From a bacterium (lineage in GTDB: Bacteria > Patescibacteriota > Patescibacteriia > Patescibacteriales > JAKAJF01), in assembly GCA_021788015.1 (NCBI GenBank), contig JAJYLD010000001.1, forward strand, positions 81,581 through 145,580: 64,000 bases of DNA. Direction: 5' to 3'. The notes under the pieces are model-generated. The model was given only the letters and a program-made list of their open reading frames with translations, did no database searches and was not told where the DNA came from. Below, one piece after another: positions 35,223-50,635 of this stretch; within the stretch, counting starts at the first letter, position 1, and the number at the start of each line of letters is the position of its first letter. Both the position numbers and the translations under genes were made by a program.

Positions 35223-36824
35223 TTATGTGAACATGGGCCTATAGTATAGCGGTAGAACAGTGCATTCGCATTGCACAGACGGCGGTTCGATTCCGCCTAG
35301 GTCCACCAAATGAGAATTTTCATCAGCGAAATGCTGATTTAGCTCGTAAATTACTCCTAATTTGGCAGTTCCAAATCCTTTTTTGCGTTCATACGGGATT
35401 CCATCTGGAAAGACCAACTTTTGGAACTTCGGCTGTAAGTGCGATACAAGATCGAACCACTGCCGGCCAAGATCCTTTATGAATTTAGTGGCGTAGATGA
35501 CCGTGCCCTCAAGATCGAACTGTTCGATCCGGGCTTCGTTCACCGATATCCTCGTGGCTGTAATCTCGTTTTCTACTTCGTCCTTACGCTCCATGAATTC
35601 CTCTTTCGTATAGGACCCATCCTCTCGCATTTCATAGATGCGTTTTTTCTTTGCCTCCAGTATCTCTATTTTCTTATTCCATTTCTCAACTTCCATCTCA
35701 AATCTCTGGCCTTTGGCTTGCCAAACATCTATGGCGACTTCTTTCAGAGCGGACAAAAATTCCCCATTTGGAGTGATCCTCGCCAGATATTCAATAAACT
35801 CTCTTTCCAAATCGGCTTTCTTTATGCTTTTTCCAAATTCAGCACAGGTCTTATTCTTGCAGTGATAATAGTTATATCTGCCTCCCATGCCTCCGCGCGG
35901 TGCGCTTCCGGTCAGTGCCCGGCCACACGCGCCGCAGAGTACGGTGCGTCTTAACGGGAAATCTGGATTATACTTGTTGTACTTTGCGACGACTCGCTTT
36001 TTGCCTGACAGGATCATCAAAATTTGGTACATCTCGTTTTTGGTGATCATCGGTTTATGCAATCCTTCAACGTCTTTTTCTGTCCACGGATTGGTAATAA
36101 TGCCGGCATAAAATTTCAGATAGTTGGTTACCAATCGGCTCACCAGCTGAGGCGGTGTTTTCTTTCCGGTCAAATCTTTAAGACCCCATTCATCCAATTT
36201 TCGGGCAAGCTCGCTCTGCGAATGTAGTCCTTGGGCGAATTCTTTTAGTCCGCGTTGGATAATCGGGAAAATTTCCTCGTGTGGCGGATCGGGCTGGGTC
36301 TTTTTCTCGCCGTGTTTTTTGTTCTGAAGGCACCTGTATCCGATCGGCGGTTTCCACGGATAGATACCTTGGTTGATTCGGGCGAGCATGCCGTCACTGC
36401 ATCTCTGTTTTCTTATAGCATTATCAAACTCGGCAATGCCGGCGAGAAATGTCTCCAGCAGTTTGGCTACCGGCTCGTTTCCGATCGGTTCTGTGACTGA
36501 ATGCAGTGTTGTGCCGTATGTGGCCAGAATTTTTCTGATGGCAAAATGGTCATCGGCATTTCGGGCAAAGCGATCCACGCGCAAAACCACGAAGGCTTGG
36601 ACCTTGTCTTTGTTTTTGCGACAGAACTCAAGGGCTTCGAGGAATTTCTTTCGGTTGTTAAGGCTTAAATCTTTGGCACTTTCGCCTTCCTCTTTGAAAA
36701 CCGAAACGATCTCGATGCCTTTGTCTTGGCAGTATTTCTTGCAAAGATCCTCTTGGAATTCCAAAGAGGTTCCTTTGACCTGTTCGTCGCTTGATACTCT
36801 TGTGTAAATTATTCCTCGCATCAT
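35223..36824 (-). CDS. large serine recombinase (resolvase/invertase N-domain, recombinase domain, zinc ribbon, coiled coil)
   Basis: IIYTRVSSDEQ catalytic Ser motif; CGACGRAL...YYHCKNKTC ribbon; last 27 codons are antisense to tRNA-Ala. Confidence 0.9.
   Translation of the reverse strand: MMRGIIYTRVSSDEQVKGTSLEFQEDLCKKYCQDKGIEIVSVFKEEGESAKDLSLNNRKKFLEALEFCRKNKDKVQAFVVLRVDRFARNADDHFAIRKILATYGTTLHSVTEPIGNEPVAKLLETFLAGIAEFDNAIRKQRCSDGMLARINQGIYPWKPPIGYRCLQNKKHGEKKTQPDPPHEEIFPIIQRGLKEFAQGLHSQSELARKLDEWGLKDLTGKKTPPQLVSRLVTNYLKFYAGIITNPWTEKDVEGLHKPMITKNEMYQILMILSGKKRVVAKYNKYNPDFPLRRTVLCGACGRALTGSAPRGGMGGRYNYYHCKNKTCAEFGKSIKKADLEREFIEYLARITPNGEFLSALKEVAIDVWQAKGQRFEMEVEKWNKKIEILEAKKKRIYEMREDGSYTKEEFMERKDEVENEITATRISVNEARIEQFDLEGTVIYATKFIKDLGRQWFDLVSHLQPKFQKLVFPDGIPYERKKGFGTAKLGVIYELNQHFADENSHLVDLGGIEPPSVQCECTVLPLYYRPMFT
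35235..35308 (+). tRNA. tRNA-Ala (anticodon CGC), CCA encoded
   Basis: Acceptor GGGCCTA/TAGGTCC with G3:U70, anticodon stem GTGCA/TGCAC, loop TTCGCAT, T-arm GGCGG-TTCGATT-CCGCC. Confidence 0.85.
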
Positions 36825-36923
36825 ATTTTTGGCATAGATTTCTCAACACACAACATACGCTTTTTTGGGCAACAAGCTAAGCGGTAGTTGCCCACAGTTC
36901 TCAAACTTTTGCTGATTTGCACT

Positions 36924-36952
36924 ATTTATCTCCATTTATCTCTATTTATTTT
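36924..36952. promoter_or_regulatory. iteron/operator-like 10-bp-period repeats upstream of the recombinase gene
   Basis: atttatctc-c-atttatctc-t-atttatttt; hairpin gggcaac...gttgccc nearby (about 36866-36892). Confidence 0.4.
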
Positions 36953-37041
36953 CTTCAAACGCAGGGTTTTGTTGGATTTTATCGGGTTTAAACATTGATC
37001 TTTTTCACCGTTTTCCAGCAATTAATTGTAAATAACTGTAA

Positions 37042-37626
37042 TCATTGATTAGGATTCGGGTTCTCTTTCGGCGCAGACTTTTTTGGATTGGTTTTCCCGA
37101 TCTCGATCCAGTTATAAATCATCTCGGCAGTTTCTTTCGGATACTGGTTTCTGGATAGGCGCAGTTTGATTTCGTAAGGGATAAGATTCCAGCGTTCTTG
37201 GAACGACATTTCGGATATTCGCATCTCGTTAAAGTTTATATTTTCTTTTGGCTTGCCTTCGACCCTGTCCAATATTTCCTTGATCGCGGCCAGCTTCACA
37301 GCATCGTCGGAACTACCCATAAGAGCCACAAGCATTTCGTTGGCCAGGCGGAAATTTTCCTCACGGACCCTGGCACCGGCTTTTCGGACGATCTCCATTG
37401 TTTCGGCATGAATCTGATCCATTTCGTTTTCATAAACGCAATATGCCTTATAAAGCCGGCCGTCCTCTTTGAACCAGTCTTTGATGGTTTGCTGGCTGAA
37501 TTTCGCAGGTCTACTTTTCGGGCACTTATTATTCAGGCCGTCGGCAATATTTTGATAGGAATATCCTTTATATTTCAGCTCAAACGCCAGCTTATGATAT
37601 GAGGATAGATGTTTTATATCTGCCAT
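37042..37626 (-). CDS. HTH DNA-binding protein (small-terminase-like or sigma-like, tentative)
   Basis: 194 aa; GYSYQNIADGL HTH-like segment; ...AVKLAAIKEILDRVEGKP helical region. Confidence 0.45.
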   Translation of the reverse strand: MADIKHLSSYHKLAFELKYKGYSYQNIADGLNNKCPKSRPAKFSQQTIKDWFKEDGRLYKAYCVYENEMDQIHAETMEIVRKAGARVREENFRLANEMLVALMGSSDDAVKLAAIKEILDRVEGKPKENINFNEMRISEMSFQERWNLIPYEIKLRLSRNQYPKETAEMIYNWIEIGKTNPKKSAPKENPNPNQ

Positions 37627-37637
37627 AAAAAGTAGAG

Positions 37638-37838
37638 TTAAGTAGACTTTTTCTTTTGGCCATCGACCACGATTACAGTCGGTTGTTCGGTCAATTTCTT
37701 AATGATGAAATTAGTCGCCGACATTCTGATCGTCTTATCTTTGCTGTTCAATAGCGATATCAGTGTCCTGGCCGCTTTAGTCAGATTTTTCTTGAATATC
37801 GCTTCCGCTTTTTCTTTTGGTGTCTTTTGTTTGCTCAT
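37638..37838 (-). CDS. hypothetical small protein
   Basis: 66 aa, 4-11 nt from neighbours in the same operon. Confidence 0.45.
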   Translation of the reverse strand: MSKQKTPKEKAEAIFKKNLTKAARTLISLLNSKDKTIRMSATNFIIKKLTEQPTVIVVDGQKKKST

Positions 37839-37842
37839 AGGT

Positions 37843-38622
37843 TTATTGGTTAAGGTTTAATAATGAATTGAAATACGCACCCCGTTTTCTGATTTTATGT
37901 TCTGGTTGGTCTCTGACGGATCGATATGCTTCCTCAATTCTTGGGAGTCCGAATTTTCTTAAAGCTGACAAAATGAAAGTCATATCTTTTTCTCCCAGCT
38001 CTTGGGCGATTTCCCAGCATCGCTGTTCCTCGTAAGACTTGGGAACAAATCCTCTTACCGGTCGTCGACCTGTCGATCGGTTATTTTTATTTTCATTCTC
38101 GTTATCGTTATTGGAACTTCTGCCGTTTTGATTTTCCGAAGTGAAAGAAAACCTTTCTACCAAAGCATTTTTATCGTCTTTCAACTTCTGCCGAACCTCG
38201 CTTACTTCTGCCGGCACTTCTGCCACAGTTTGTCCTGATGTATCACTTTCACTTCTGCTAGACTTCTGCTGAAGCCGAGTCTCAAGGTTTACAAAACCAC
38301 CGTCAGATAAGGGATAATTGCTAATATCAACATGGAATGAACTTCTGCGACCTTGCTGTACGGCAAACCATACCCACTTCTTACGCTTAAGGTTTAACAT
38401 CAGCCGGTTGATCATGTTCTTGGAGTATTTTTCCTTGAAGTCTTTGGATAATCCGGCGTAGCTAACCTGGGACCGGCCGTTTCGTGGGTTAGCATTGAGC
38501 CAGAGCCAAACCAGTAAGGCATATTCCTCAAACCGCAAATGACCGTCGACAAGGGCGGTCTTGATGCTTCGAGGAAGCTTTACGTAATCGTTATTGTCTA
38601 TTTTGAATGGTAGATTTTCCAT
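37843..38622 (-). CDS. winged-helix replication/DNA-binding-like protein
   Basis: 259 aa; N-terminal wHTH-like region (YALLVWLWLNANPRNGRSQVSYAGLSKDF), Asn/Ser-rich linker, C-terminal helical domain. Confidence 0.5.
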   Translation of the reverse strand: MENLPFKIDNNDYVKLPRSIKTALVDGHLRFEEYALLVWLWLNANPRNGRSQVSYAGLSKDFKEKYSKNMINRLMLNLKRKKWVWFAVQQGRRSSFHVDISNYPLSDGGFVNLETRLQQKSSRSESDTSGQTVAEVPAEVSEVRQKLKDDKNALVERFSFTSENQNGRSSNNDNENENKNNRSTGRRPVRGFVPKSYEEQRCWEIAQELGEKDMTFILSALRKFGLPRIEEAYRSVRDQPEHKIRKRGAYFNSLLNLNQ

Positions 38623-38644
38623 ATTTCATATTCATTGGACCGGC

Positions 38645-38911
38645 TTACTCTACGGCATCGTTGTACATGAGCGATTTAAGTTCCTTGATCGCTGTCACAA
38701 ATGCCCGGGCATTAACCTCGACCAAGCCGGCAAAGTACGCGCTTACCAGCTGTGGCCGGTTGGGCTGATCGGCGAAAATGAAACGATACCGGCGTGAGTC
38801 GGCTTTGTTTATGCCAAAGAGCTGAAATCCCTTGGCCGAGAGGAAAGCGGCCGCGTAGAAGTCGCTTGTAGCGAAGTTATTGTTGTTGTCCGGTTGGTTT
38901 TTCATGTTCAT
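38645..38911 (-). CDS. DUF5659-like small protein (from memory)
   Basis: TSDFYAAAFLSAKGFQL...SRRYRFIF...LVEVNARAF pattern; start ambiguous. Confidence 0.45.
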   Translation of the reverse strand: MNMKNQPDNNNNFATSDFYAAAFLSAKGFQLFGINKADSRRYRFIFADQPNRPQLVSAYFAGLVEVNARAFVTAIKELKSLMYNDAVE

Positions 38912-39092
38912 TTTGATTGTTATTTTTATTCTCCTGCGTTTCGCTCTTGGCTTTGATGCGTTCAGCCTGCCATTGCTCAAACATAAGTTCGGCCAGCATG
39001 TACAGGCCGTCCCGGATTTCCTCGACCTCTTGGTCGGAGAGTTTCGGATTATTGATTAATTGTTTTACTCGCTCGACACTTAACATATGCAT
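38877..39092 (-). CDS. hypothetical small protein
   Basis: 71 aa, helical, Gln/Asn-rich tail. Confidence 0.45.
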   Translation of the reverse strand: MHMLSVERVKQLINNPKLSDQEVEEIRDGLYMLAELMFEQWQAERIKAKSETQENKNNNQNEHEKPTGQQQ

Positions 39093-39147
39093 TCATCGTA
39101 GCGAGCGAGCCACTATGCCTTAAATAGTCCGCGGAGAAATTTTGGCA

Positions 39148-39174
39148 AACAAAAAACGCTCATTTTGTGAGCGT
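39148..39174 (-). terminator. rho-independent terminator (minus strand)
   Basis: Minus-strand acgctca-caaaa-tgagcgt followed by T6. Confidence 0.8.
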
Positions 39175-39213
39175 GTTGCCAAAGTTATTAACACTACTTG
39201 AGGACTACGAGCG

Positions 39214-39897
39214 TCACTTCAAAAAAATTCTATACTTTGGGTTAATGCGATAGCCGTCAGTACGACGACCTTCGATAAGTTTTACGATTTTCAAATCGTG
39301 TTTGGCTTTAGCGTTTATTTTCATAATCGCTGAACGGATTGATGAGTCGCTATTAGCACCGGTTGCCGTGCGTATATCTGGTGTAGCCTGATATCCTTTG
39401 CCAATCAGGTATTTAATAATCTGATGACGGGATTGTTCTTTGCCCATCGGGTAGCAGTATTTACTTTTCGGTTCACGATATAAATCGGCCTCGGCCGACA
39501 AGTGGAGGATTGTCTGGTTTAATTCAACTGGTTTGGTTTTGCCTTGAGAAAAATATTCGGCAAAAGAAATTGCGGCTACTTTGGCAAATGTGTTTATAAA
39601 ATGCTGGTCATATTCAGTTAATCCTTCAAATTTGCTGGTTCGGCGTTCCAAGAGGGACCGGATGCTCTTTACCTCAAGCTTTGTTTCAATAATCTCTTTC
39701 GTTAGAAGTCCGATCGCCGGCTGATTGCGTTTTATGATTTGATCACTATCAGATATGCCTACCGATTTCATCGATGACCGCAAAATCTTTTCGGTAGTTG
39801 CGATGGATAATTGATAAGTCGATATCAAGCTTACCGGTTTTCTTATATTAAATTTGTATTTAGTGGCCAGCCCGGCCTTTTTCATTTTCATACTCAT
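39214..39897 (-). CDS. hypothetical protein with C-terminal OmpR-like winged-helix
   Basis: 227 aa; ...SSIRSAIMKINAKAK...IEGRRTDGYRINPKY resembles the wHTH recognition wing. Confidence 0.5.
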   Translation of the reverse strand: MSMKMKKAGLATKYKFNIRKPVSLISTYQLSIATTEKILRSSMKSVGISDSDQIIKRNQPAIGLLTKEIIETKLEVKSIRSLLERRTSKFEGLTEYDQHFINTFAKVAAISFAEYFSQGKTKPVELNQTILHLSAEADLYREPKSKYCYPMGKEQSRHQIIKYLIGKGYQATPDIRTATGANSDSSIRSAIMKINAKAKHDLKIVKLIEGRRTDGYRINPKYRIFLK

Positions 39898-39940
39898 TTT
39901 GGTGAATAAGACCCATTTTATAGCTCAAATTCACTAATTT

Positions 39941-39984
39941 CCGGGCTATAGCCCGGTTGCTTGTATTTTCCTTTTATGTATAAT
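39941..39984 (+). promoter_or_regulatory. 16-bp perfect palindrome abutting a strong sigma70-like promoter
   Basis: ccgggctatagcccgg (39941-39956), then TTGCTT-16 nt-TATAAT (39957-39984), 55 nt upstream of the plus-strand gene train. Confidence 0.55.
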
Positions 39985-40039
39985 ATAATACTTGTAATAA
40001 ACAAAAAGGGCAAATAATGATTAATACACCTAAAATACT

Positions 40040-41311
40040 ATGCAAAAAGGCCTAATAAAAGAAGTAATAAGCAAGCAAAGCCAGGAAAAAGAAGTCCTGT
40101 CCCGTTTGGATTACGTGGAGAGAACTAAGGCGGTTCAAGCCCCTGAATGGATGTCCTCGCCTTTGGTTAAGGTTGTGCTAGGACCGAGACGCGCCGGTAA
40201 GTCGGTATTTTCCCTCATGTTGCTCAAGGGCAAGCCTTTTCTCTATTTTAATTTTGACGATCCGGCATTGGTTGGAGAAAAATTGGATTTGTATGAGCTT
40301 GTCGACGAACTGCATAAATTCTACGGAGACACGAAATTTGTTTTGTTCGACGAAATACAAAATCTTAAGGGCTGGGAGTTGTTTGCAAACCGTCTGCATC
40401 GCCAGGGCTACAATCTTGTTTTGACTGGTTCAAATGCCAATCTTTTGTCGATGGAACTCGCGACCCATTTGACCGGCCGGCATTTGCCGATAGAAATACT
40501 GCCGTTTGATTTTCAGGAATTTTTGAAGGCTAAGAATTTTTCCCAGCTCGATCAGAAATCGGAACTTTTGAAATTACTGGATCAGTACATGGCGTTCGGC
40601 GGTTTTCCGGAAGTGGTTATAAAAAATCAGCATCCGCGTGGATATTTGGATGTGCTATTTGATGCATTGCTTTTCAAGGATGTCGTGAAGCGACACAAGG
40701 TTCGTTTTTCCGAACAAATAGACCAGCTTGGTTCGTATCTGATAAACAATGTTTCCAATCAATACAGTTTTCGCAAACTTGCTAACGTTTTGAAATTTAA
40801 GAGCAATGTGACACTTGAACGGTATCTGAAATATCTCGAAGAAGCGTATGTTGTTTTTTCTCTTTCCGGCTTTTCTGCCAAGGCCGGCGAACGTCTCCGA
40901 TCGCCTAAAAAGATTTATACCGTAGACAACGGCTTCGTTGCTTCCAAAGCCGTTCAACATTCTCCTGACAATGGAAAGCTTATGGAGAACTTGGTATTCA
41001 CAGAACTGGTAAAAAGAGGATTTGAACCGAATCGAGAATTATTCTATTACAAAACTCGCAACGGCAAGGAGGTTGATTTCGCTATTCGCAATGGCTACGA
41101 GACCTCCGAACTTATTCAGGTCTGCTACGATTTGAGAAATTCCGATGTTGAGCAGAGAGAAATAAAGGCATTAACCGAGGCCTCCGATGAACTAAAAGTT
41201 TCCAATTTGACGATACTGACATGGGACGATGAGCGGGAGGTAAAGAAAGACGGGAAAACCATACAATTCAAACCGCTCTGGAAGTGGCTTCTTGATAAAA
41301 ATCAAAAGTAA
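40040..41311 (+). CDS. AAA+ ATPase of the AAA_14/DUF4143 (COG1373) type
   Basis: Walker A GPRRAGKS, Walker B VLFDEIQ, C-terminal GKEVDFAI...ELIQVCY block. Confidence 0.8.
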   Translation: MQKGLIKEVISKQSQEKEVLSRLDYVERTKAVQAPEWMSSPLVKVVLGPRRAGKSVFSLMLLKGKPFLYFNFDDPALVGEKLDLYELVDELHKFYGDTKFVLFDEIQNLKGWELFANRLHRQGYNLVLTGSNANLLSMELATHLTGRHLPIEILPFDFQEFLKAKNFSQLDQKSELLKLLDQYMAFGGFPEVVIKNQHPRGYLDVLFDALLFKDVVKRHKVRFSEQIDQLGSYLINNVSNQYSFRKLANVLKFKSNVTLERYLKYLEEAYVVFSLSGFSAKAGERLRSPKKIYTVDNGFVASKAVQHSPDNGKLMENLVFTELVKRGFEPNRELFYYKTRNGKEVDFAIRNGYETSELIQVCYDLRNSDVEQREIKALTEASDELKVSNLTILTWDDEREVKKDGKTIQFKPLWKWLLDKNQK

Positions 41312-41316
41312 ATTAT

Positions 41317-41775
41317 ATGTCGCAGGAAATCGCCATCAAAAACTTAATATTCGTAGATTGCGAAGGGCACGGGCCGGCGCCAACATTGAACGATCCGGTT
41401 GGTTTTGAGTTTGGCGCAGTCGCTTATCCATCACGGCAGACATTCCACGGGACCGGCGCAACCAAAGAAACATTCGAGAATTTTGACAAATGGATTGCAT
41501 CAGTGATTGAACAAGGATTCAGACCGCTATTTGTCAGCGACAACCCGGCTTACGACTGGCAATTTATTAATTATTACTTCCATTCGTTCCTCGGCAAAAA
41601 TCCCTTCGGTCATTCCGCAAGGCGGATCGGTGATTTTTATGCTGGCCTTGTCGGGGACTTTACCGATGCAAGCTCTTGGAAAAAACTGCGAATCACCGCG
41701 CATGATCACAATCCGGTTCACGATGCCATGGGCAATCTCGAAGCATTCGAGAGAATATTAAATGGAGAAAGATAA
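41317..41775 (+). CDS. DEDDh-type 3'-5' exonuclease
   Basis: FVDCEGHG (DxE), SDNPAYDWQF (D), HNPVHDAMGN (Hx4D); 152 aa; 5-nt gap after the ATPase. Confidence 0.7.
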   Translation: MSQEIAIKNLIFVDCEGHGPAPTLNDPVGFEFGAVAYPSRQTFHGTGATKETFENFDKWIASVIEQGFRPLFVSDNPAYDWQFINYYFHSFLGKNPFGHSARRIGDFYAGLVGDFTDASSWKKLRITAHDHNPVHDAMGNLEAFERILNGER

Positions 41776-41786
41776 ATAATAAATTT

Positions 41787-43391
41787 ATGCCAAAGGAAAT
41801 CGCCAATAAAACCAAAGATGTAAGCATAAGTATGACCAAAGAGCAGGAGCGCACGGAGTTGCATCGTGCTATTTGGCAGATTGCAAATGATTTGCGTGGA
41901 AGTGTTGACGGGTGGGATTTCAAGTCATATGTGCTCGGTATGCTTTTCTATCGCTTCATCAGTGAGAACTTAACTAACTACATCAATACCGACGAACGAC
42001 GAGCCGGTAAAAAGGATTTTGATTACGCTAGGCTTTCAGACAAAGAGGCTGAATTCGGCCGAACGGACACAGTAAAAGAGAAAGGTTTTTATATTCTCCC
42101 AAGCGAGCTTTTTGTAAATGTAAGAAATAAAGCTCGCAATGATGCCAATCTTAACGAAACTCTGAATACTGTTTTTAGAAATATTGAAAACTCGGCAAAA
42201 GGGGCAAACAGTGAGGATGATTTGAAGGGCTTATTTGATGATTTAGACGTGAATTCGAACAAGCTTGGCAGTACAGTGGAGAAAAGAAATCAAAAACTGG
42301 TTAAACTCCTTGAAGCAATCGGCGATCTGCGACTTGGCAATTATTCAGACAATACGATTGATGCGTTCGGCGATGCGTATGAATTCTTGATGACCATGTA
42401 CGCTTCAAACGCCGGAAAGTCTGGCGGTGAATTCTATACTCCCCAGGAGGTCAGTGAACTTTTGGCTCGAATCGCTACTGTTGGTAAAAAAGAAGTTAAC
42501 AAAGTTTATGATCCAGCCTGTGGTTCCGGTTCGCTTCTTTTGAAATTCGCCAAAGTTCTCGGCAAAGAAAACGTACGATTGGGTTTCTATGGACAGGAAA
42601 TAAATATAACCACTTATAACCTGTGCCGTATCAACATGTTTTTGCACGATATCAATTACAATCATTTTGATATTGAGCATGGCGACACGTTGACGGACCC
42701 GAAACATTGGGACGACGAACCTTTCGACGCCATTGTCTCCAATCCTCCCTATTCAATCCGCTGGGATGGCGACGGCAATCCGTTATTAATAAACGATCCT
42801 CGTTTTTCACCGGCCGGAGTGCTGGCCCCCAAGAGCAAGGCAGATTTGGCTTTCACCATGCATATGCTCGCTTGGCTCTCTACGAGCGGGACGTCCGTCA
42901 TAGTTGAATTTCCGGGAGTTCTTTATCGTGGCGGTGCCGAGCAAAAGATTCGCAAATATTTGATAGACAATAACTATATTGATGCGGTCATCCAGCTACC
43001 GCCCGATCTTTTCTTTGGCACAACAATCGCGACTTGCATTATTGTTCTTAAAAAGAGCAAAAAAGACAACAAGACCTTATTCATTGATGCCTCCGCCGAA
43101 TTTGTGCGAGGTGGGAACAAGAATAAATTGACTGAAGCCAATCGATCCAAGATTTTGGAGGCTTTTTCCGCACGAAAGGACGCAGAGCACTTTGCAAAAC
43201 TAATTGAAAACAAAGCTATTGCCCAAAATGACTACAATATTGCCGTTTCGAGTTATGTGGAAGGAGAAGATACGCGTGAAGCAGTTGATATCACCGAGCT
43301 CAATGCCCGAATAAAGGTTCTTGTTGCTCGGCAACAAGAACTCCGTACCGCGATCGATCAAATCGTGGCGGATATCGAGGGCAATAAATAA
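41787..43391 (+). CDS. hsdM: type I restriction-modification methyltransferase subunit
   Basis: Motif I YDPACGSGSLL, motif IV IVSNPPYSIRW, N-terminal HsdM-type helical domain. Confidence 0.95.
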   Translation: MPKEIANKTKDVSISMTKEQERTELHRAIWQIANDLRGSVDGWDFKSYVLGMLFYRFISENLTNYINTDERRAGKKDFDYARLSDKEAEFGRTDTVKEKGFYILPSELFVNVRNKARNDANLNETLNTVFRNIENSAKGANSEDDLKGLFDDLDVNSNKLGSTVEKRNQKLVKLLEAIGDLRLGNYSDNTIDAFGDAYEFLMTMYASNAGKSGGEFYTPQEVSELLARIATVGKKEVNKVYDPACGSGSLLLKFAKVLGKENVRLGFYGQEINITTYNLCRINMFLHDINYNHFDIEHGDTLTDPKHWDDEPFDAIVSNPPYSIRWDGDGNPLLINDPRFSPAGVLAPKSKADLAFTMHMLAWLSTSGTSVIVEFPGVLYRGGAEQKIRKYLIDNNYIDAVIQLPPDLFFGTTIATCIIVLKKSKKDNKTLFIDASAEFVRGGNKNKLTEANRSKILEAFSARKDAEHFAKLIENKAIAQNDYNIAVSSYVEGEDTREAVDITELNARIKVLVARQQELRTAIDQIVADIEGNK

Positions 43392-43395
43392 AGTT

Positions 43396-44946
43396 ATGAA
43401 AAATCAAAAGCTCTCAATTTATTTAATTAAAGATGGTGTCACGAATCACGTTGACATTGTTAAAGATGTAAATATAAAAGAGACTTTTGATAATGGCATT
43501 TTGTACTACAAAAAATCTTTCTCAAAAGAGCCGGCATGGACAGATAACTTTTTTAATAAAAGCATAGATGCATTAAAAAACTCTACTGCATCCGGTTTGT
43601 ATATCACAAAGGTAAAACACAGCAATAAAGATATTTATTTCGGCATCTCTTTTGGGCACGGATGGCAGATGTTCAAAGATGGCGTTATTGTTGAGCAGTT
43701 TGGTATTAAGACAGCCCTCAGCATTATCAAAAGTGAAGTAAAGAAAATTGAAAAGAAGAATTTTAAGAATGGGTTGAAAGATGTGTCAGAGCAACTCGGA
43801 AGGATTGGGACGGTTGCAGACTTCGGTTTTGATATAGAGCAAGACATTATGAGAGCGGTTGTTGGCGAACCGGAGAATCAAGAATCGTATGGAAAGAATG
43901 TTGTAGGTAAAGATGCGATAAGCATATCTATTAAAAAGAGTGTGGATGAAATCAACGATGTGCTTCTCGAACTGTACAAGGCTTACATTTCTAATAAATA
44001 CAAAGAAAGATTTGACTGGTTTGATAATTTTTCAGCAGTTCATGACAAAAAACTGATCGCCGATTTAGATAATAAAATCAGTGCAAAAATAAATAATGAC
44101 AATAATACAGATGTAATTTATTGGTTGTCTATTCCGGAGGTTGTAGAGTGGGAAAATACAAAATGCTTTAAATATAGTGCCAAAAATAACGCGCCAGAGT
44201 ATCAAGATATCACTTTTGAAGATTTCAAAGATTCGTTGAAAGATGATGAAAAAAATAATATCACTATAGATTTACTCAAAGGCAAAAAGGTACAGCAGAT
44301 AGATACAAATGATCAAATAGTAAAAGAATGGTCTATATATAAGTGTCTATATTCGGAAGTTGACTTAAATAATGAGAAGTATTTATTGGTGGCCGCCAAA
44401 TACTACAGAGTGGATGCGACATATAAAAATAAAATCGAGAGTGAATATGTAGTTGATACAAATTTTACTTTACCAAACTGGGATAAGGCAGATCATGAGA
44501 ATGACTATAATAAAAAAGTTGAGACTAATGATGCTACAAATTATCAATGTCTTGATGGTGGTTCCAATCAAAATAATTTAATTGGAAAGGGCAAAATTGA
44601 ATTTGCCGATCTCGTGAAGTCCGATAAACATCTGATCCACGTAAAGAAATACGGGGCAAGTGCCGTATTGAGTCACTTGTTTAGTCAAGGATTGGTATCT
44701 GCTGATTTACTGCTTACGGATAAACCATTCAGAAAAGAAGTAAATGGGAAACTGAAGACCTCGCACAAAAGCGTGGTCTCAGAGAGTGATCCGAATCCTG
44801 TAGAGTATACAATTGTTTATGCCATAGGCACCAGCAAGAATGACCTGAAATTACCATTTTTCAGCATTATTAATTACAGGAACATCAAGAAGCAATTGAA
44901 TCTGTATCGTTACAATGTTTTATTGATAAAAATCAATCAAGTTTAA
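43396..44946 (+). CDS. uncharacterised 516-aa protein embedded between hsdM and hsdS (resembles TIGR04141/DUF6119-type proteins, from memory)
   Basis: 4 nt after the hsdM stop and 1 nt before the hsdS ATG; AT-richer than flanks; C-terminal GKIEFADLV...LIHVKKYGASAVLSHLFSQG block. Confidence 0.75.
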   Translation: MKNQKLSIYLIKDGVTNHVDIVKDVNIKETFDNGILYYKKSFSKEPAWTDNFFNKSIDALKNSTASGLYITKVKHSNKDIYFGISFGHGWQMFKDGVIVEQFGIKTALSIIKSEVKKIEKKNFKNGLKDVSEQLGRIGTVADFGFDIEQDIMRAVVGEPENQESYGKNVVGKDAISISIKKSVDEINDVLLELYKAYISNKYKERFDWFDNFSAVHDKKLIADLDNKISAKINNDNNTDVIYWLSIPEVVEWENTKCFKYSAKNNAPEYQDITFEDFKDSLKDDEKNNITIDLLKGKKVQQIDTNDQIVKEWSIYKCLYSEVDLNNEKYLLVAAKYYRVDATYKNKIESEYVVDTNFTLPNWDKADHENDYNKKVETNDATNYQCLDGGSNQNNLIGKGKIEFADLVKSDKHLIHVKKYGASAVLSHLFSQGLVSADLLLTDKPFRKEVNGKLKTSHKSVVSESDPNPVEYTIVYAIGTSKNDLKLPFFSIINYRNIKKQLNLYRYNVLLIKINQV

Positions 44947-44947
44947 T

Positions 44948-46117
44948 ATGCCAAAACATCAAAGCAAAATAGAAAAATTGATCGCCGAACACTGCCCCAA
45001 AGGGGTTGAGTTTAAGAAGTTAGGAGAAGTTTGCGAAATTGCCGACAATAAAAGGAAGCCGGTAGCGTCAAGTTTACGCGTAGCTGGCAAAATACCTTAC
45101 TATGGTGCAAACAACATACAGGACTACGTTGAAGGTTTTACTCATGAAGGTGATTATGTATTGATTGCGGAAGACGGCTCCGCGAGTCTGGAGAATTATT
45201 CAATACAATTTGCTTCTGGTAAATTTTGGGCAAATAACCACGTTCATGTTGTAAGAGGGTGCAACGAACTCAATAACAAATTTCTATTTCATTACCTTAG
45301 GAGTATGAACTTTGTTCCTTATCTGACTGGTGGGACTCGAGCAAAGTTGACTAAGGGAAAAATGTTGGAGATTAAAATTCCCATCCCACCACTTGACATC
45401 CAGCAAGAAGTCGCAAAAATCCTCAATACTTTTACGAAACTAGAAGCAGAGCTAGAAGCAGAGCTAGAAGCGAGAAAGAAGCAGTACGAACATTATCGCT
45501 CTGAGCTCCTGACGTTCAAGGACGGAACCGAGAGAGAGAGAGTAAGATGGGCCGCGCTGAGTGAAATAGGAAAAGTATCTATGTGTAAAAGAATTTTCAA
45601 AAATCAAACATCTGCAACCGGCGATATACCGTTCTACAAGATCGGGACTTTTGGTAAAGAACCAGACGCTTTTATTTCGCAGGAAATTTTTGACGAATAT
45701 CGCAAAAAATATTCATTTCCTAAAAAAGGCGATGTTCTTATATCTGCCTCGGGTACGATCGGCAGAATGGTTATTTATGACGGCAAGCCAGCATATTTTC
45801 AGGATTCAAATATTATCTGGATTGATAATGACGAGAGTAAAGTGCTTAATAAATTTTTGTATTATTTGTACGCGATAGTGAAATGGCAGACTGAAGGTGG
45901 CACAATCAAACGGCTCTATAACGACAATCTAAAGAAAATTAAAATCCCTGTACCATCGCTTGATGAGCAAAAACGTGTCGTGTCTGTCCTAGATAAATTT
46001 GACGCTCTTGTGAACGATATTTCTATCGGTTTGCCGGCAGAGCTTTCCGCGCGCAGGTCTCAGTATGAATACTATCGAGGCAAGCTCTTAACCTTTAACG
46101 AATATGTCCCAGCATAA
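44948..46117 (+). CDS. hsdS: type I restriction-modification specificity subunit
   Basis: Two TRD halves separated by a central coiled-coil (LEAELEAELEARKKQYEHYRSELLTF) and a C-terminal conserved ARRSQYEYYRGKLLTF. Confidence 0.9.
   Translation: MPKHQSKIEKLIAEHCPKGVEFKKLGEVCEIADNKRKPVASSLRVAGKIPYYGANNIQDYVEGFTHEGDYVLIAEDGSASLENYSIQFASGKFWANNHVHVVRGCNELNNKFLFHYLRSMNFVPYLTGGTRAKLTKGKMLEIKIPIPPLDIQQEVAKILNTFTKLEAELEAELEARKKQYEHYRSELLTFKDGTERERVRWAALSEIGKVSMCKRIFKNQTSATGDIPFYKIGTFGKEPDAFISQEIFDEYRKKYSFPKKGDVLISASGTIGRMVIYDGKPAYFQDSNIIWIDNDESKVLNKFLYYLYAIVKWQTEGGTIKRLYNDNLKKIKIPVPSLDEQKRVVSVLDKFDALVNDISIGLPAELSARRSQYEYYRGKLLTFNEYVPA
45440..45475 (+). repeat. 12-bp tandem repeat x3 in the hsdS central conserved region
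   Basis: ctagaagcagag-ctagaagcagag-ctagaagcgaga encoding LEAE-LEAE-LEAR. Confidence 0.9.
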
Positions 46118-49100
46118 TAAATACAATTTAGTCGCGGAAAACACGCAGAGCACCGTTGTTTCGGAATATACACCGGACAATGTTCGCGTTGCTCACTACC
46201 AGAGCGAGGCCGAACTCGAAAAAGCATTTATTAAACAGCTTGAGACGCAAGCGTATGAATATATCACCGTCACATCCGAAGCTGAGCTGATACACAATCT
46301 ACGCAGTCAATTGGAAAAGTTGAACGGCTTTGCATTCAGTGATAACGAATGGGAACGATTCCTTGCGAGCGAACTCGCTAATCCAAATCAAGGCATTGAA
46401 GAGAAAACAGCAACGATTCAGGAGGATTATATTAAAAACCTGACACGTGATGATGGTTCGGTAAAAAATATATACCTCATCAAAAAAGATAATATTCACG
46501 ACAATAGTCTGCAGGTTATTAATCAATATGCCACTGAAGACGGCCAAAGAGCCAATCGTTATGATGTCACGGTTTTAGTGAACGGGTTACCGCTCGTTCA
46601 TATAGAGCTCAAACGGCGAGGCGTTGCGATTCAAGAAGCGTTTAATCAGATCAACCGTTATCACCGGGAGAGTTTTTGGGCGTCGGCCGGTCTTTTCGAA
46701 TACATCCAGTTGTTTGTTATATCCAATGGCACACACACTAAATATTACAGCAATACGACTCGTGCTACGCATATCAAAGAAGCAAGCGAGGGTGTGATAA
46801 AGAAAGGAAAACGTACCAGCAATAGTTTTGAATTTACCAGCTGGTGGGCTGACGCTACCAATCGCCCGATCACGGATTTGATAGATTTCGCAAAAACATT
46901 TTTCGCTAAACACACGCTTTTAAATATTTTAACCCGTTATTGCGTGTTCACGACTGATCGTATGTTGCTCGTAATGCGCCCGTATCAGATCGTAGCAACG
47001 GAACGGATATTAAACCGCATAGAAGTAAGCACAAACTATAAAAAACTCGGCACAGTGGAAGCTGGCGGATATATATGGCATACCACCGGCTCGGGCAAAA
47101 CTTTAACCAGTTTCAAAACCGCACAACTGGTAAGCAGACTGCCGTATATCGACAAGGTTGTATTTGTGGTTGATCGGAAAGATTTGGATTATCAAACCAT
47201 GCGAGAATATGACAAATTTGAAAAAGGTGCGGCTAATAGCAACACTTCCACTTCCATTTTGAAGCGTCAGCTCGAGGATTTTAATGCTCGGATAATCATA
47301 ACCACTATTCAGAAGCTGGACCGGTTTGTCGAACGAAACTCCGGTCATACGATTTTTGATGGTCATGTGGTTCTTATTTTTGACGAGTGCCACCGTTCGC
47401 AATTCGGTGACATGCATTCCGCTATAACCAAAGCGTTCAAGAATTACCACATTTTTGGATTTACCGGCACGCCAATTTTTGCGGTTAACGCTTCATCGAG
47501 CGGTCGGCCTGACCTAAGAACCACAGAGCAGGCTTTTGGCGAAAAGCTTCACACTTATACAATCGTCGATGCAATCGCCGATAAGAACGTTTTGCCGTTC
47601 AAAGTTGATTATGTATCTACTGTCCGCGAAGCTGAAGATATCGAAGACAAAAAAGTAAGCGACATTGACCGAGAAGCGGTTCTGTCCGCCCCCGAGCGCT
47701 TAACAAATATCGTCAGCTATATACGAGAGCATTTTGATCAGAAGACCAAGCGCAACAGTTTTTATAAATTGAAAGAGCGAAGATTGGCTGGCTTTAACTC
47801 AATCTTTGCTGTTTCCTCAATTGATGTTGCCAAGAAATATTATGCTGAATTCAAAAAGCAGTTGGCCGGCGTTTCCAGCGACAAAAGGCTAAAAGTCGCA
47901 TTGATTTATAGTTTCGGTGTCAATGACGAAGATGCCGATGGAATGATCGACGAAAACTCAGAAGATACGTCAGGGCTTGACGCAAGCTCTAGAGATTTTT
48001 TGGACTCCGCTATTACTGATTATAATGCTATGTTCGGTACTTCCTACGACACGTCATCGGATAAATTCCAGAATTACTACAAGGATGTCAGCCAAAGAGT
48101 AAAAGACCGCGAGATAGACGTTCTCATCGTGGTCAATATGTTTTTGACCGGATTTGATGCGACAACGCTCAATACTTTGTGGGTAGATAAAAATTTGCGG
48201 TTGCATGGCCTTTTGCAGGCATATTCACGCACGAACAGAATTCTCAACAGCGTGAAGACTTTTGGCAATGTTATTTGTTTCAGAAATCTTGAAAAAGCAA
48301 CAAACGAGTCAATTGCTCTTTTTGGCGACAAAGAAGCAAGTGGTATCGTGCTTTTGAAATCATATGCCGAATACTACAACGGCTATAAAGACGGCAACAA
48401 AGAAGTGCGCGGCTACAAGAGTCTGGTAGAAGAACTGATGGAGAAGTTTCCGGTCGGACAGACGATTATTGGCGAGCAAAACCAAAAGGATTTTATAAAG
48501 CTCTACAGTGCTATTTTACGAGTTCGTAATATTTTGGTAACTTTTGACGAATTTATCGGCAATGAAATTCTGACCGAAAGAGATGTGCAGGATTATCACA
48601 GTATGTACATCGATCTCTATAACGAATTTCGTAAAAGCACAGAGGAAGAAAAAGAAAATATCAATGATGATTTGGTGTTTGAAATGGAACTCATCAAACA
48701 AATTGAGATAAATATCGATTATGTTTTGGGCCTGATCAAAAAATACCACGAGGATCATGTTAAAAACCGCGAACTTCTGGTTGATATTAATAAAGCAATA
48801 GATTCAAGTGTTGAATTGCGTAATAAGAAAGACCTGATCAATCAATTTATCTCCTCTCTTGATGTTCATTCGGTTGTGGACGATGATTGGCAGAAATTCG
48901 TCGACGAGAAGAAGATTGAAGAGCTTGAGAAGATTATTGCCAATGAAAAGCTCGATCGCGATGCAACTTACAAGTTCGTAAAAAACGCCTTTCGCGATGG
49001 CAGTGTGCCTACGACAGGCACGGCGATCACTAAAGTCCTACCGCCTGTATCCCGTTTTTCGCCGACCGGTGAACGCACAAAGAAACGCGAGACCGTTCTC

Positions 49101-49169
49101 GCTAAATTAACAGGTTTCTTTGAAAGATTTTTTGATATTTCCGGTGGCAAGTTCTCCGAAAAAGAATAA
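46104..49169 (+). CDS. hsdR: type I restriction endonuclease/helicase subunit
   Basis: 1021 aa; SF2 motifs HTTGSGKTLTSF and IFDECHRSQ; start overlaps the hsdS end by 14 nt. Confidence 0.95.
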   Translation: MSQHNKYNLVAENTQSTVVSEYTPDNVRVAHYQSEAELEKAFIKQLETQAYEYITVTSEAELIHNLRSQLEKLNGFAFSDNEWERFLASELANPNQGIEEKTATIQEDYIKNLTRDDGSVKNIYLIKKDNIHDNSLQVINQYATEDGQRANRYDVTVLVNGLPLVHIELKRRGVAIQEAFNQINRYHRESFWASAGLFEYIQLFVISNGTHTKYYSNTTRATHIKEASEGVIKKGKRTSNSFEFTSWWADATNRPITDLIDFAKTFFAKHTLLNILTRYCVFTTDRMLLVMRPYQIVATERILNRIEVSTNYKKLGTVEAGGYIWHTTGSGKTLTSFKTAQLVSRLPYIDKVVFVVDRKDLDYQTMREYDKFEKGAANSNTSTSILKRQLEDFNARIIITTIQKLDRFVERNSGHTIFDGHVVLIFDECHRSQFGDMHSAITKAFKNYHIFGFTGTPIFAVNASSSGRPDLRTTEQAFGEKLHTYTIVDAIADKNVLPFKVDYVSTVREAEDIEDKKVSDIDREAVLSAPERLTNIVSYIREHFDQKTKRNSFYKLKERRLAGFNSIFAVSSIDVAKKYYAEFKKQLAGVSSDKRLKVALIYSFGVNDEDADGMIDENSEDTSGLDASSRDFLDSAITDYNAMFGTSYDTSSDKFQNYYKDVSQRVKDREIDVLIVVNMFLTGFDATTLNTLWVDKNLRLHGLLQAYSRTNRILNSVKTFGNVICFRNLEKATNESIALFGDKEASGIVLLKSYAEYYNGYKDGNKEVRGYKSLVEELMEKFPVGQTIIGEQNQKDFIKLYSAILRVRNILVTFDEFIGNEILTERDVQDYHSMYIDLYNEFRKSTEEEKENINDDLVFEMELIKQIEINIDYVLGLIKKYHEDHVKNRELLVDINKAIDSSVELRNKKDLINQFISSLDVHSVVDDDWQKFVDEKKIEELEKIIANEKLDRDATYKFVKNAFRDGSVPTTGTAITKVLPPVSRFSPTGERTKKRETVLAKLTGFFERFFDISGGKFSEKE

Positions 49170-49180
49170 TCTATGCAAAT

Positions 49181-50635
49181 ATGAGCACTAATATTCAAAA
49201 ATGGGAAAAGAAAGATATAGCAATCAAAGACCTTTCGCTTTGGGATGAGAATCCGCGATTTCCAGAAGAGTATTTTAGTAAGACCGAATCCGAACTCATA
49301 GAATATTTCTTGCGAAAGAAGGAATTCAAAATCGATTCTTTTGCGAAAGAAGTTGCAAAGGAATTTGATCTTCCTCAACTGGAAAGAATAGTTGTCTTTC
49401 AATACAAAGGAAAGAATATTGTCTTGGAGGGAAATCGTCGTCTGATTGTGTATAAATTACTGCTTAATCCGGTGCTGACCAGCAATCCATCATCAAAAAC
49501 TCTTTTCGAAAGTTTACAAAGACAGACAAAAATAAAAGATTCCTTCGGGCTTGAAGCAAATGTTACCACAATCAAAGATGAGGGATTACGTTTTGTAGAT
49601 AGAAAACATAACAGAGGAAATAATGAGGTGGGTTGGGGTGAACCTGAGCGTAGAAATTTCGCAGTACGCCGTTCTCATGGTGGGAGCAAGGATATTCTCC
49701 GGGTTGAATTAGCCAATGCGGTTAAGAGGCTTTCATTACCAGATTCCATTAAAGAAGCAGTGCTTAGCAGGGGCTTAGTTACCACTTTTTACCGCATCGT
49801 GGATAGCATATCTGCACGTAAAAAGTTAGGATATGAAGTTTCTGAAAGTGGTACCTTAGGCATTAAAGACCAGAAAAAATTCGACAGCTTACTCAAGGTA
49901 ATCGCATATAATATTTGGGCAAAGAAAGACTTTAATGGCGAAGATGTTGATTCGCGCTCACTTAACAAGACGAGAGCCATAGAGAGTTACATTTCAGGTA
50001 TACAAGTTAAAAATGCGACTCGTGTTGATAACGAAATAAAGAAAAGCACAAAAGAGACTTTGTTTGGAGAACAGGTAATTCTCACTCCTGCTAGAACAAA
50101 AAGCAATCAACTTTCCGGCGAGCGTAAGTATTTAATCAACTCATCAATTTATATCCAAAGTTTCAGGATTAACGATATTTACGATGAATTGCGAAAGAAA
50201 ATTGAAGTAGATAACGCTCCCAATGCAGTGGCGGTTCTTTTCCGTGTTTTTATGGAATGCTCGATTGATTGCTATATTGATACTCACAAATTGAAAATAA
50301 AAGATGATACAAAGTTGGCTGGGAAAATCCTGAAGGTTGTCGATCATCTTGAAGATGCTATTGCTCTACGCCGTCTTGCCGAAGAAGGCAATAAAACACC
50401 AACACCGGAGGAGTTTAAGAAAGTAAAGGAGAAAGTTAAATTTAAGAATATGAGGAGAGTGGCGACGAAAGACAATAACAGCATACTTTCAGTCGAAACA
50501 TTCCATGATTTTGTTCATGATTATAAAACATCGCCGATACCATCCGAGTTAAAAAAATACTGGGAGAATCTCGATAGTTTCTTTGTGGCACTATGGAGTT
50601 CTTTCGCGACAGTTAAAAAGAAGAAAAGCAAATGA
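49181..50635 (+). CDS. ParB/Srx-fold N-terminal domain protein with an uncharacterised ~380-aa C-terminal region
   Basis: LWDENPRF and VLEGNRRLIVYKLL ParB-like boxes; 484 aa. Confidence 0.65.
   Translation: MSTNIQKWEKKDIAIKDLSLWDENPRFPEEYFSKTESELIEYFLRKKEFKIDSFAKEVAKEFDLPQLERIVVFQYKGKNIVLEGNRRLIVYKLLLNPVLTSNPSSKTLFESLQRQTKIKDSFGLEANVTTIKDEGLRFVDRKHNRGNNEVGWGEPERRNFAVRRSHGGSKDILRVELANAVKRLSLPDSIKEAVLSRGLVTTFYRIVDSISARKKLGYEVSESGTLGIKDQKKFDSLLKVIAYNIWAKKDFNGEDVDSRSLNKTRAIESYISGIQVKNATRVDNEIKKSTKETLFGEQVILTPARTKSNQLSGERKYLINSSIYIQSFRINDIYDELRKKIEVDNAPNAVAVLFRVFMECSIDCYIDTHKLKIKDDTKLAGKILKVVDHLEDAIALRRLAEEGNKTPTPEEFKKVKEKVKFKNMRRVATKDNNSILSVETFHDFVHDYKTSPIPSELKKYWENLDSFFVALWSSFATVKKKKSK

Follow-up and report, generated by a model that had tools for sequence, protein, structure and literature searches.

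An ATPase and an exonuclease gene lead a co-directional train

The stretch of DNA analysed here (hereafter the window) comprises 64,000 nucleotides (nt) of a Patescibacteriota genome (JAKAJF01; GenBank assembly GCA_021788015.1, contig JAJYLD010000001.1, positions 81,581–145,580 of the forward strand). Our subject is a pair of genes within it, encoding an AAA+ ATPase and a DEDDh exonuclease, which lie on the same strand with a 5-nt spacer (41312–41316) between them, and which an earlier note on this DNA had put forward as a possible two-gene defence module or as a helper of the adjacent restriction–modification (R-M) system. The two open reading frames (ORFs) and the motifs read from them at the time, namely Walker A, Walker B, GKEVDFAI...ELIQVCY and the DEDDh set, are all present exactly as quoted. 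The features of the pair and its borders are as follows.

39961–39989, plus strand: conserved promoter of the ATPase cassette, with -35 TTGTAT (39961–39966), a 17-nt spacer and -10 TATAAT (39984–39989)
39990–40039, plus strand: 5' leader of the ATPase mRNA, near-invariant in an 11-locus alignment
40017–40055, plus strand: 12-codon upstream ORF (uORF) MINTPKILCKKA, with an AAGGG-type ribosome-binding site, overlapping the ATPase start codon out of frame
40040–41311, plus strand: PDC-S01-type AAA+ ATPase, 423 amino acids (aa), assigned from Pfam, PADLOC and an AlphaFold2 (AF2) model; domain order AAA_14, DUF4143 with a winged-helix-like region, C-terminal restriction-endonuclease-like domain
40181–40204, plus strand: ATPase Walker A, GPRRAGKS, residues 48–55
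40340–40360, plus strand: ATPase Walker B, VLFDEIQ, residues 101–107
41075–41077, plus strand: ATPase D346, in GKEVDFAI (residues 342–349)
41117–41125, plus strand: ATPase Q360-V-C362, in ELIQVCY (residues 357–363)
41311–41341, plus strand: left copy of a 31-nt direct repeat (the 'leader'), covering the spacer and the first 8 codons of the exonuclease (MSQEIAIK)
41317–41775, plus strand: Cap18-family DEDDh 3'-5' exonuclease, 152 aa
41356–41364, plus strand: exonuclease D14/E16 (DCE)
41536–41556, plus strand: exonuclease SDNPAYD, residues 74–80
41707–41724, plus strand: exonuclease HNPVHD, residues 131–136
41781–41811, plus strand: right copy of the repeat, read as MPKEIANKTK, which is the 5' end of a DUF7695 Zn-ribbon gene and is joined here in frame to hsdM

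The first protein gave Pfam matches to AAA_14 (PF13173, 3.6e-29, residues 43–162) and DUF4143 (PF13635, 1.3e-25), and matched the PADLOC model for PDC-S01 (PDLC04787, 1.2e-105) with residues 24–420 on profile positions 9–409 of 412. With this full-length profile match, and sharing with PDC-S01 the combination of AAA_14 and DUF4143, the Walker motifs and a C-terminal domain bearing E316 and D346, the ATPase is a candidate defence gene of a known kind. PDC-S01, reported to rank among the most abundant defence candidates of prokaryotes, has been described as a single-gene candidate that is embedded in R-M-rich islands, its function not demonstrated (PMC12988326). Residues G48, R50, G53, K54, D104, E105, E316 and D346 are invariant in homologues of the ATPase. 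As to the expected PD-(D/E)xK-like C-terminal domain, E316 and D346 lie in an alpha-beta-beta-beta-alpha-beta unit (residues 310–420, AF2), but the third motif reads Q360-V-C362 where (D/E)xK is canonical. This variant is clade-wide and sets the window ATPase and its relatives apart from the canonical nuclease-like domain; E-x-K is present in other DUF4143 proteins (L049, L199a), and QVx also occurs in distant DUF4143 ATPases that have no exonuclease beside them. The idea that the exonuclease replaces a nuclease site lost by its partner is unsupported, as QVx is also found in ATPases lacking the exonuclease, distant ones included. The AF2 model of the ATPase was poor (mean predicted local distance difference test, pLDDT, 64, with a weak middle) and was confident in the AAA+ core and residues 310–420; its Foldseek matches were generic AAA+/Orc1-like ATPases, which adds little given the quality of the model. 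No sequence homologue of the ATPase was found in the PDB, and the NCBIfam search returned no name for either gene.

In the exonuclease, D14, E16, D75, D80, H131 and D136 are invariant in 35 homologues and the Exo I, II and III motifs are complete, with N76 alongside D75. The DEDDh assignment therefore stands, but the protein is not a generic member of that group: judged from its sequence and predicted fold, it belongs to the Cap18/CBASS-Exo family (CBASS, cyclic-oligonucleotide-based antiphage signalling system). While Pfam gave no match, the PADLOC model 'Effector/Exonuclease' (PDLC00753), probably a CBASS exonuclease model as its number adjoins those of the CBASS cyclase models, matched at 2.1e-21. 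The sole significant PDB sequence match (phmmer, 2.5e-15, residues 48–149 only) was 7T2S, which the papers citing it give as E. coli upec-117 Cap18, a CBASS-associated 3'-5' exonuclease. The AF2 model (pLDDT 94.4) shows a DEDDh fold (RNase H-like alpha/beta), for which Foldseek placed 7T2S first (1.6e-9), ahead by about five orders of magnitude, followed by RNase T, the PolC exonuclease domain, a DnaQ domain and RNase AS. Cap18 and the window protein share the Exo II block N-x-x-(Y/F)-D-W-x-F-I-N-Y-Y-F-H-x-(F/Y)-L-G-x-N-P-F-G. Traits expected of such enzymes include selective cleavage of 2'-5' linked di- or oligonucleotides and a dimer with a stacking Phe; F97, in the NPFG that aligns between Cap18 and the window protein, is nearly invariant. 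The N-terminal third of the window protein is shorter and does not align with Cap18 (152 aa versus 177–187 aa). The family is of moderate size, its homologues numbering 2910 clusters at E ≤ 1e-3 (90% database) and 834 clusters at 50% identity, the named close matches being Patescibacteria metagenome-assembled genomes (MAGs).

As with Cap18 and the CBASS Exo of V. cholerae and S. marcescens, the window exonuclease combines a complete DEDDh set with a place at the 3' end of a putative defence operon, and relatives at ~60% identity sit behind a CD-NTase (cGAS/DncV-like nucleotidyltransferase). It differs from the CBASS Exo in having PDC-S01 as its partner in the window, and SoFic and others elsewhere; Pfam and PADLOC detected no CBASS cyclase, effector or regulator in the window, and no cyclase among the train genes scanned. 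The CBASS Exo has 2'-5' phosphodiesterase activity (bioRxiv 10.1101/2025.03.04.641389), an activity that is putative for the window protein.

The pairing recurs, and the exonuclease has many partners

We surveyed the neighbourhoods of both genes. The exonuclease-side scan considered one genome per species and took the best 80 matches as loci, so that frequencies are rough; neighbouring ORFs were called mechanically and classified, and representatives were checked with Pfam and PADLOC. The ATPase-side scan covered 43 loci on metagenome contigs. Far from being unique to this locus, as the earlier note had allowed, the pairing was found in 22 of the 80 exonuclease loci: there the gene immediately 5' of the exonuclease, in the same orientation and at a distance of -34 to +6 nt, encodes a PDC-S01-type ATPase. 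Where the exonuclease is ≥79% identical to that of the window, 25 loci had informative upstream sequence, and 20 of these showed a PDC-S01 ATPase in it. Further pairs were seen on metagenome contigs, and in two loci (L066, L179) the two genes are divergently oriented. The ATPases beside the exonuclease form three divergent subclades, and other modules occupy the same upstream position. Upstream partners of the exonuclease in the 80 loci were as follows.

PDC-S01-type ATPase, subclade of the window: 5 loci
PDC-S01-type ATPase, subclade ~65% identical to the window ATPase: 8 loci
PDC-S01-type ATPase, subclade of 477–489 aa, ~20% identical to the window ATPase: 7 loci
More distant ATPase directly upstream: L036; divergent ATPase: L066
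SoFic-type Fic: 5 loci on the same strand, 3 divergent
AbiEi–AbiEii: 5 loci, as a three-gene operon with the exonuclease last
RhuM/PDC-S05: 2 loci
2TM (two-transmembrane) protein with a CBASS cyclase (PDLC00803, 3.6e-78): 2 loci
SNF2 helicase, M78 peptidase, HATPase-DUF4325 protein: 1 locus each

Behind either of the first two ATPase subclades (A, that of the window, and B), the 477-aa type or SoFic, the exonuclease is 85–95% identical, and more distant relatives lie behind RhuM, AbiEi–AbiEii and the 2TM-CD-NTase pair. Across these loci the exonuclease is the constant element and the partner the variable one. The cyclase loci, in which the gap to the exonuclease relative is 3–4 nt, each hold a minimal CBASS-like operon (L057, 5715–7510; L062, 5722–7516) of a 168-aa transmembrane protein, a 255-aa oligonucleotide cyclase and a 171-aa exonuclease, adjoined by a divergent gene of ~210 aa.

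Seen from the ATPase, the association is looser. Close homologues (86–95% identity) are followed by the exonuclease in about 4 of the 14 loci with enough downstream sequence (L162, L167, L168, L177) and lack it in about 10 (L161, L163–L166, L169, L171, L173, L193, L197). At 63–69% identity, it is present in about 2–3 of 12 loci (L181, L182/L183), divergent in L179 and absent from about 10. Unrelated genes, such as an HtrA-like protease or a methyltransferase with a DUF262-like gene, follow the ATPase where the exonuclease is missing. That the ATPase occurs alone with its own promoter in many relatives fits the single-gene definition of PDC-S01, from which the Cap18-like exonuclease found directly 3' in ~30% of close relatives departs. 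The proposed two-gene module is thus recurrent but not obligate.

Fusions of the ATPase with the exonuclease were not found among the proteins searched, the long 'exonuclease' proteins being intein-containing or having unannotated extensions. One homologue, P0386 (542 aa), is split by a LAGLIDADG intein, and the SNF2 helicase upstream of the exonuclease in L042 also bears an intein. We rejected the view of the exonuclease as a conserved housekeeping gene that marks a hotspot, as only ~150 relatives were found among 185,579 species genomes, occurring sporadically and on elements with recombinase or primase genes. A phage origin of the pair was likewise rejected, since relatives on IMG/VR virus contigs (38–75% identity) have none of these partners. 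Those relatives are encoded on 76 virus-classified contigs (L085–L160), many of them 100–500 kb long, and several lie near SNF2 helicases; Cap18-like enzymes of phages could serve to counteract CBASS or act as nucleases in replication.

Module boundaries and divergence show exchange of the exonuclease

Module boundaries were taken from blastn alignments, which returned blocks of three kinds. A block of promoter, ATPase and exonuclease, running from 39927/39961 to the exonuclease stop at 41775, is shared with L013, L020, L022, L162 and L177; the L019 block also ends at the exonuclease stop, its contig starting inside the block, and that of L005 runs on into hsdM. In ~10 close relatives, the block consists of promoter and ATPase only (39960–41295). 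Where the partner differs, it covers the exonuclease only, starting at 41304–41341 and ending at 41663–41832.

Nei–Gojobori estimates of the ratio of non-synonymous to synonymous substitutions (dN/dS) against the five co-linear loci were ~0.03–0.07 for both genes (~0.03–0.05 for the exonuclease), so both are real genes under purifying selection. Within the window subclade, dS was 0.74–2.3 with dN ~0.05 for the ATPase, and 0.77–2.7 with dN 0.02–0.07 for the exonuclease, and paired values of dS matched (0.74/0.77 and 1.2/1.4 for ATPase/exonuclease). This agreement extends over L005, L013, L019, L020 and L022, and argues on sequence grounds that the two genes are co-inherited within the subclade. 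Between subclades, the divergence of the two genes is strongly discordant: against subclade-B loci, dS of the ATPase is saturated at dN 0.28, while the exonuclease remains at dS 1–2 (4.6 for L001) and dN 0.02–0.06, as little diverged as when it stands beside the 477-aa ATPase or SoFic. The low divergence of the exonuclease relative to that of its partners means that its lineage is younger than the divergence of the partners and has been exchanged among them. In a neighbour-joining tree of the exonuclease, of low resolution, the partner types are likewise intermixed.

Conserved promoter and leader of the ATPase cassette

The promoter that the earlier note had described as strong and placed at 39957–39984 does correspond to a conserved element, lying ~5 nt further on: TTG(C/T)AT, 17 nt and TATAAT at 39961–39989 are invariant across the 11 aligned loci, both with and without the exonuclease, and DNA homology blocks to other loci start at 39927–39961. 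Its strength is argued from conservation, because a generic consensus scan did not list the site, and promoter-like and terminator signals in the region were not above those of shuffled sequence. The leader that follows (positions 83–126 of alignment A4) is nearly all invariant in the same loci, beyond the conservation of the coding region, which together with the uORF suggests a regulatory leader. Directly 5' of the promoter, a perfect 16-nt GC-rich palindrome (CCGGGCTATAGCCCGG, 39941–39956), partly conserved in L005 only, could be a terminator of upstream transcription or an operator.

A short leader repeat borders the exonuclease

The two leader copies that bracket the exonuclease (repeat family D2) are 77% identical, and an 18-mer pattern from the repeat core matches at these two places only within the window. 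The codons of the left copy precede the first strand of the fold (AF2 model). The Zn-ribbon gene to which the right copy belongs gave a Pfam match to DUF7695 of 1.9e-13 and, when intact, encodes 62 aa. It follows the exonuclease in L001, L007, L010, L017, L018, L031 and L054, the ATPase directly in L179 and L192, and Fic in L063. The leader heads this 62-aa gene in L001, L007, L010, L017, L018, L031, L044 and L192, persists as a truncated scar in L027, L030, L166 and L197, and is fused to a PLD-helicase in L023. In the window, the first ~10–15 codons of hsdM (41787–41831, MPKEIANKTKDVSIS) are the 5' end of the DUF7695 gene, and the canonical N-terminus, MTKEQERTELH, starts at Met16; this suggests that recombination joined cargo to the Zn-ribbon leader here.

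Because its homology block starts ~10 nt before the ATG, the exonuclease has no promoter of its own. We infer that the promoterless exonuclease cassette, and other cargo, would enter at the leader, downstream of an expressed island gene. A promoterless gene bounded on both sides by a ~31-nt repeat recalls integron-like cassettes, but the locus lacks an integron integrase and any attI or attC-type structure, and the repeat is the translated 5' end of the Zn-ribbon gene, present in two copies in the window. Movement was probably by homologous or illegitimate recombination.

The surrounding mobile element and the rest of the train

The pair occupies the first cargo position of what looks like an integrated element (~35.2–51.5 kb), flanked by a CCA-adding enzyme gene with tRNA-Ala on one side and a TspO gene on the other. 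Its remaining parts are as follows.

35223–39897, minus strand: integrative-element backbone, with a serine recombinase by tRNA-Ala, g194, g66, g259, a DUF5659 protein, g71 and g227
41787–51477, plus strand: rest of the co-directional train, with type I hsdM, DUF6119/TIGR04141, hsdS, hsdR, PD-Lambda-5 A and PD-Lambda-5 B, assigned from Pfam, PADLOC and NCBIfam

The recombinase carries the Pfam domains Resolvase and Zn_ribbon_recom, and its ORF crosses the complement of tRNA-Ala (35235–35308) over the part at 35223–35308, its last ~28 codons being antisense to the tRNA, which suggests integration at or into the tRNA gene. Direct repeats that would mark attL and attR of the element were not found in the window, which is what one expects of a serine recombinase. 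The same backbone occurs in L010 and L017, where it is followed by ATPase, exonuclease and Zn-ribbon gene, the ATPase belonging to a different subclade. Homologues of g71 (71 aa, 38877–39092) lie directly after the Zn-ribbon gene (L001, 8645–8785) or after the exonuclease (L026, 679–828), and the small genes of this element family thus accompany the exonuclease module. In L001, the pair adjoins a primase-helicase gene between yceG and mnmA, a site at which L004 has Fic and exonuclease; modules lie directly upstream of mnmA in L001, L004, L021, L030 and L171, which suggests a chromosomal hotspot that such modules have used repeatedly in Patescibacteria.

The genes of the train are separated by gaps or overlaps of ≤11 nt, and a scan found no convincing plus-strand terminator between them. 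Between hsdM and hsdS lies a DUF6119/TIGR04141 'sporadically distributed protein' (541 aa, 43321–44946; Pfam 9e-119), for which there is no PADLOC model. The train ends with PD-Lambda-5 A/B (49181–51477), a 484-aa protein and a D12-class adenine methyltransferase; a related PD-Lambda-5 pair lies ~3 kb downstream of the exonuclease of L024.

Interpretation

Our preferred reading, to which we give slightly better than even chances, is that of a recurrent modular arrangement and not an obligate system, in which a self-promoted PDC-S01 ATPase cassette has acquired a portable, promoterless accessory of the Cap18 family. The two genes (39961–41775) would be read from one transcript that starts at the promoter at 39961–39989. 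The ATPase module would be an independent unit in most relatives, and the exonuclease cassette would have been recombined, at the ~30-nt leader that it shares with the DUF7695 Zn-ribbon gene, behind unrelated defence or toxin modules; the recipients would include the three PDC-S01 subclades, SoFic, RhuM, AbiEi–AbiEii and the 2TM-CD-NTase pair, mostly on mobile islands of Patescibacteria. As to function, the ATPase may be an ATP-driven DNA-binding sensor or effector, its nuclease-like domain being without the canonical lysine. The exonuclease would work in trans, on the 3' end of a nucleic acid or oligonucleotide and without partner-specific protein contact, because it shows no partner-specific changes and many partners occur without it; it may either finish degradation or, as its CBASS relatives do, cap and limit the response.

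Several points weigh against this. Tight gene spacing is common in the compact genomes of Patescibacteria and is hence a weak sign of coupling. Few genes of such islands are more abundant than the partners, so the association could be partly a defence-island effect, and leader-mediated insertion beside Zn-ribbon genes could explain repeated pairing without a functional link. The loci compared are mostly MAG contigs, which makes adjacency frequencies rough, and the intermingling of partner types was seen in a neighbour-joining tree of the exonuclease with 152 residues, low resolution and no support values. The base-recognition residues of the V. cholerae Exo lie in the N-terminal third, which is unaligned between the window exonuclease and Cap18, so that the substrate specificity of the CBASS Exo is not transferable. 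Finally, the one PDC-S01 representative tested, in E. coli B, gave no protection against T4, T5 or T7 (bioRxiv 10.1101/2024.09.26.614923).

Possible, if on the unlikely side, is that the exonuclease serves as a safety catch, continuously destroying a nucleotide-derived product or 3' adduct of the upstream module and thereby sparing the cell until infection, with a small shared substrate making it portable. The closest characterised relatives are indeed negative regulators: the CBASS Exo hydrolyses a 2'-5' linked intermediate, and its deletion is toxic (bioRxiv 10.1101/2025.03.04.641389). A catalytically dead cap18 left CBASS protection against lambda intact (bioRxiv 10.1101/2022.01.04.474952). 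Family members at ~60% identity in 2TM-cyclase-exonuclease operons, the presence of nucleotidyl- or AMP-transferases and toxins (AbiEii, SoFic, RhuM) among the other partners, the invariable position of the exonuclease as the last gene of the module and its freedom from partner-specific sequence change all point the same way. Set against these are that no nucleotide product is known from a PDC-S01 ATPase, that AbiE loci already have an antitoxin in AbiEi, that most close homologues of the ATPase do without the exonuclease, presumably with no toxic effect, and that the base-recognition region of the CBASS Exo is not conserved.

We regard it as unlikely that the two genes have no functional link and that their pairing reflects merely the insertion site of the cassette, at the Zn-ribbon leader, and the crowding of defence genes on islands. 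The leader repeats at both ends of the exonuclease and the scars behind ATPases that lack it are what such passive insertion would leave, the Zn-ribbon gene itself takes the same place behind ATPase and Fic, and the relatives on virus contigs do without these partners. Yet the arrangement is kept under purifying selection with matched divergence, the association also appears in divergent orientation for both Fic and ATPase, and three elements with the same backbone keep ATPase and exonuclease as first cargo although the ATPase subclade has been swapped.

We consider it quite unlikely that the pair is an obligate two-component system, in which a sensing or translocating ATPase and an exonuclease dedicated to it as effector form a complex, each being without function in the absence of the other. 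Junctions of 5 nt or with overlap in more than 20 species-level loci and three ATPase subclades, co-divergence of the pair as a block in five loci, and the usefulness that an external nuclease could have for an ATPase with QVC in place of the canonical lysine motif speak for it. It is hard to reconcile with the ~70% of close ATPase homologues that lack the exonuclease, the QVx motif of distant ATPases without one, an exonuclease that stays 85–95% identical whatever its partner and so shows no partner-specific adaptation, and the failure to find fusion proteins.

Very unlikely, finally, is a helper of R-M that degrades type I restriction ends in organisms without RecBCD-type nucleases. In its favour, hsdM lies within 11 nt of the exonuclease in the window and L005, and several other close loci have R-M-type genes after it, belonging to type I systems (L004, L010, L020) or encoding a type III Mod (L027), an EcoRI-like methyltransferase (L006) or a PLD-helicase (L011, L012, L015, L023). 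Against it, these downstream types are mutually unrelated, housekeeping mnmA or small genes with no R-M take that position in many loci, and the junction with hsdM in the window is a secondary fusion into the leader of a Zn-ribbon gene. As a type I hsdM comes after the exonuclease in just five loci, namely the window, L004, L005, L010 and L020, a tie to type I R-M was rejected, and the helper role suggested in the earlier note is weak.

Implications

Both kinds of gene were known before, and work on Cap18-type exonucleases has until now dealt with them as accessories of CBASS. What is new is that a single Cap18-like lineage has been shuffled, as an accessory, among five or more unrelated defence modules, of which PDC-S01 is the most frequent partner. 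Hyperpromiscuous antitoxin domains such as those of the Panacea/PanA type, in which one small gene is linked to many unrelated toxin or defence partners, offer a parallel, as the exonuclease too is tightly linked to, and exchanged among, unrelated partners. It differs from them in being an intact enzyme, located downstream and almost invariant between partners, many of which also exist alone; neutralisation by the exonuclease is putative.

The most far-reaching version of the safety-catch reading, which we think has little chance of being right, would make the exonuclease a universal portable antitoxin-like enzyme behind abortive-infection modules of unrelated mechanism (CD-NTase, AbiEii, SoFic, RhuM and PDC-S01), all of which would produce or respond to one class of nucleotide-linked product (for example 2'-5' linked or 3'-nucleotidylated) that the enzyme removes. 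Were it true, PDC-S01 ATPases and Fic and RhuM proteins would use unrecognised nucleotide-derived intermediates. If, on the other hand, the exonuclease were only a passenger, the locus would be an ordinary one, with a known candidate gene and a known accessory type.

Under the preferred reading of a self-promoted ATPase cassette with a portable accessory, Cap18-like enzymes would be general accessories of immune modules and not parts specific to CBASS. The exonuclease would then give a handle on PDC-S01, by raising the question of whether these ATPases become toxic or less effective when it is missing, and the locus would illustrate how, in organisms with very small genomes, cassettes that lack promoters are shuffled by way of a short conserved leader.

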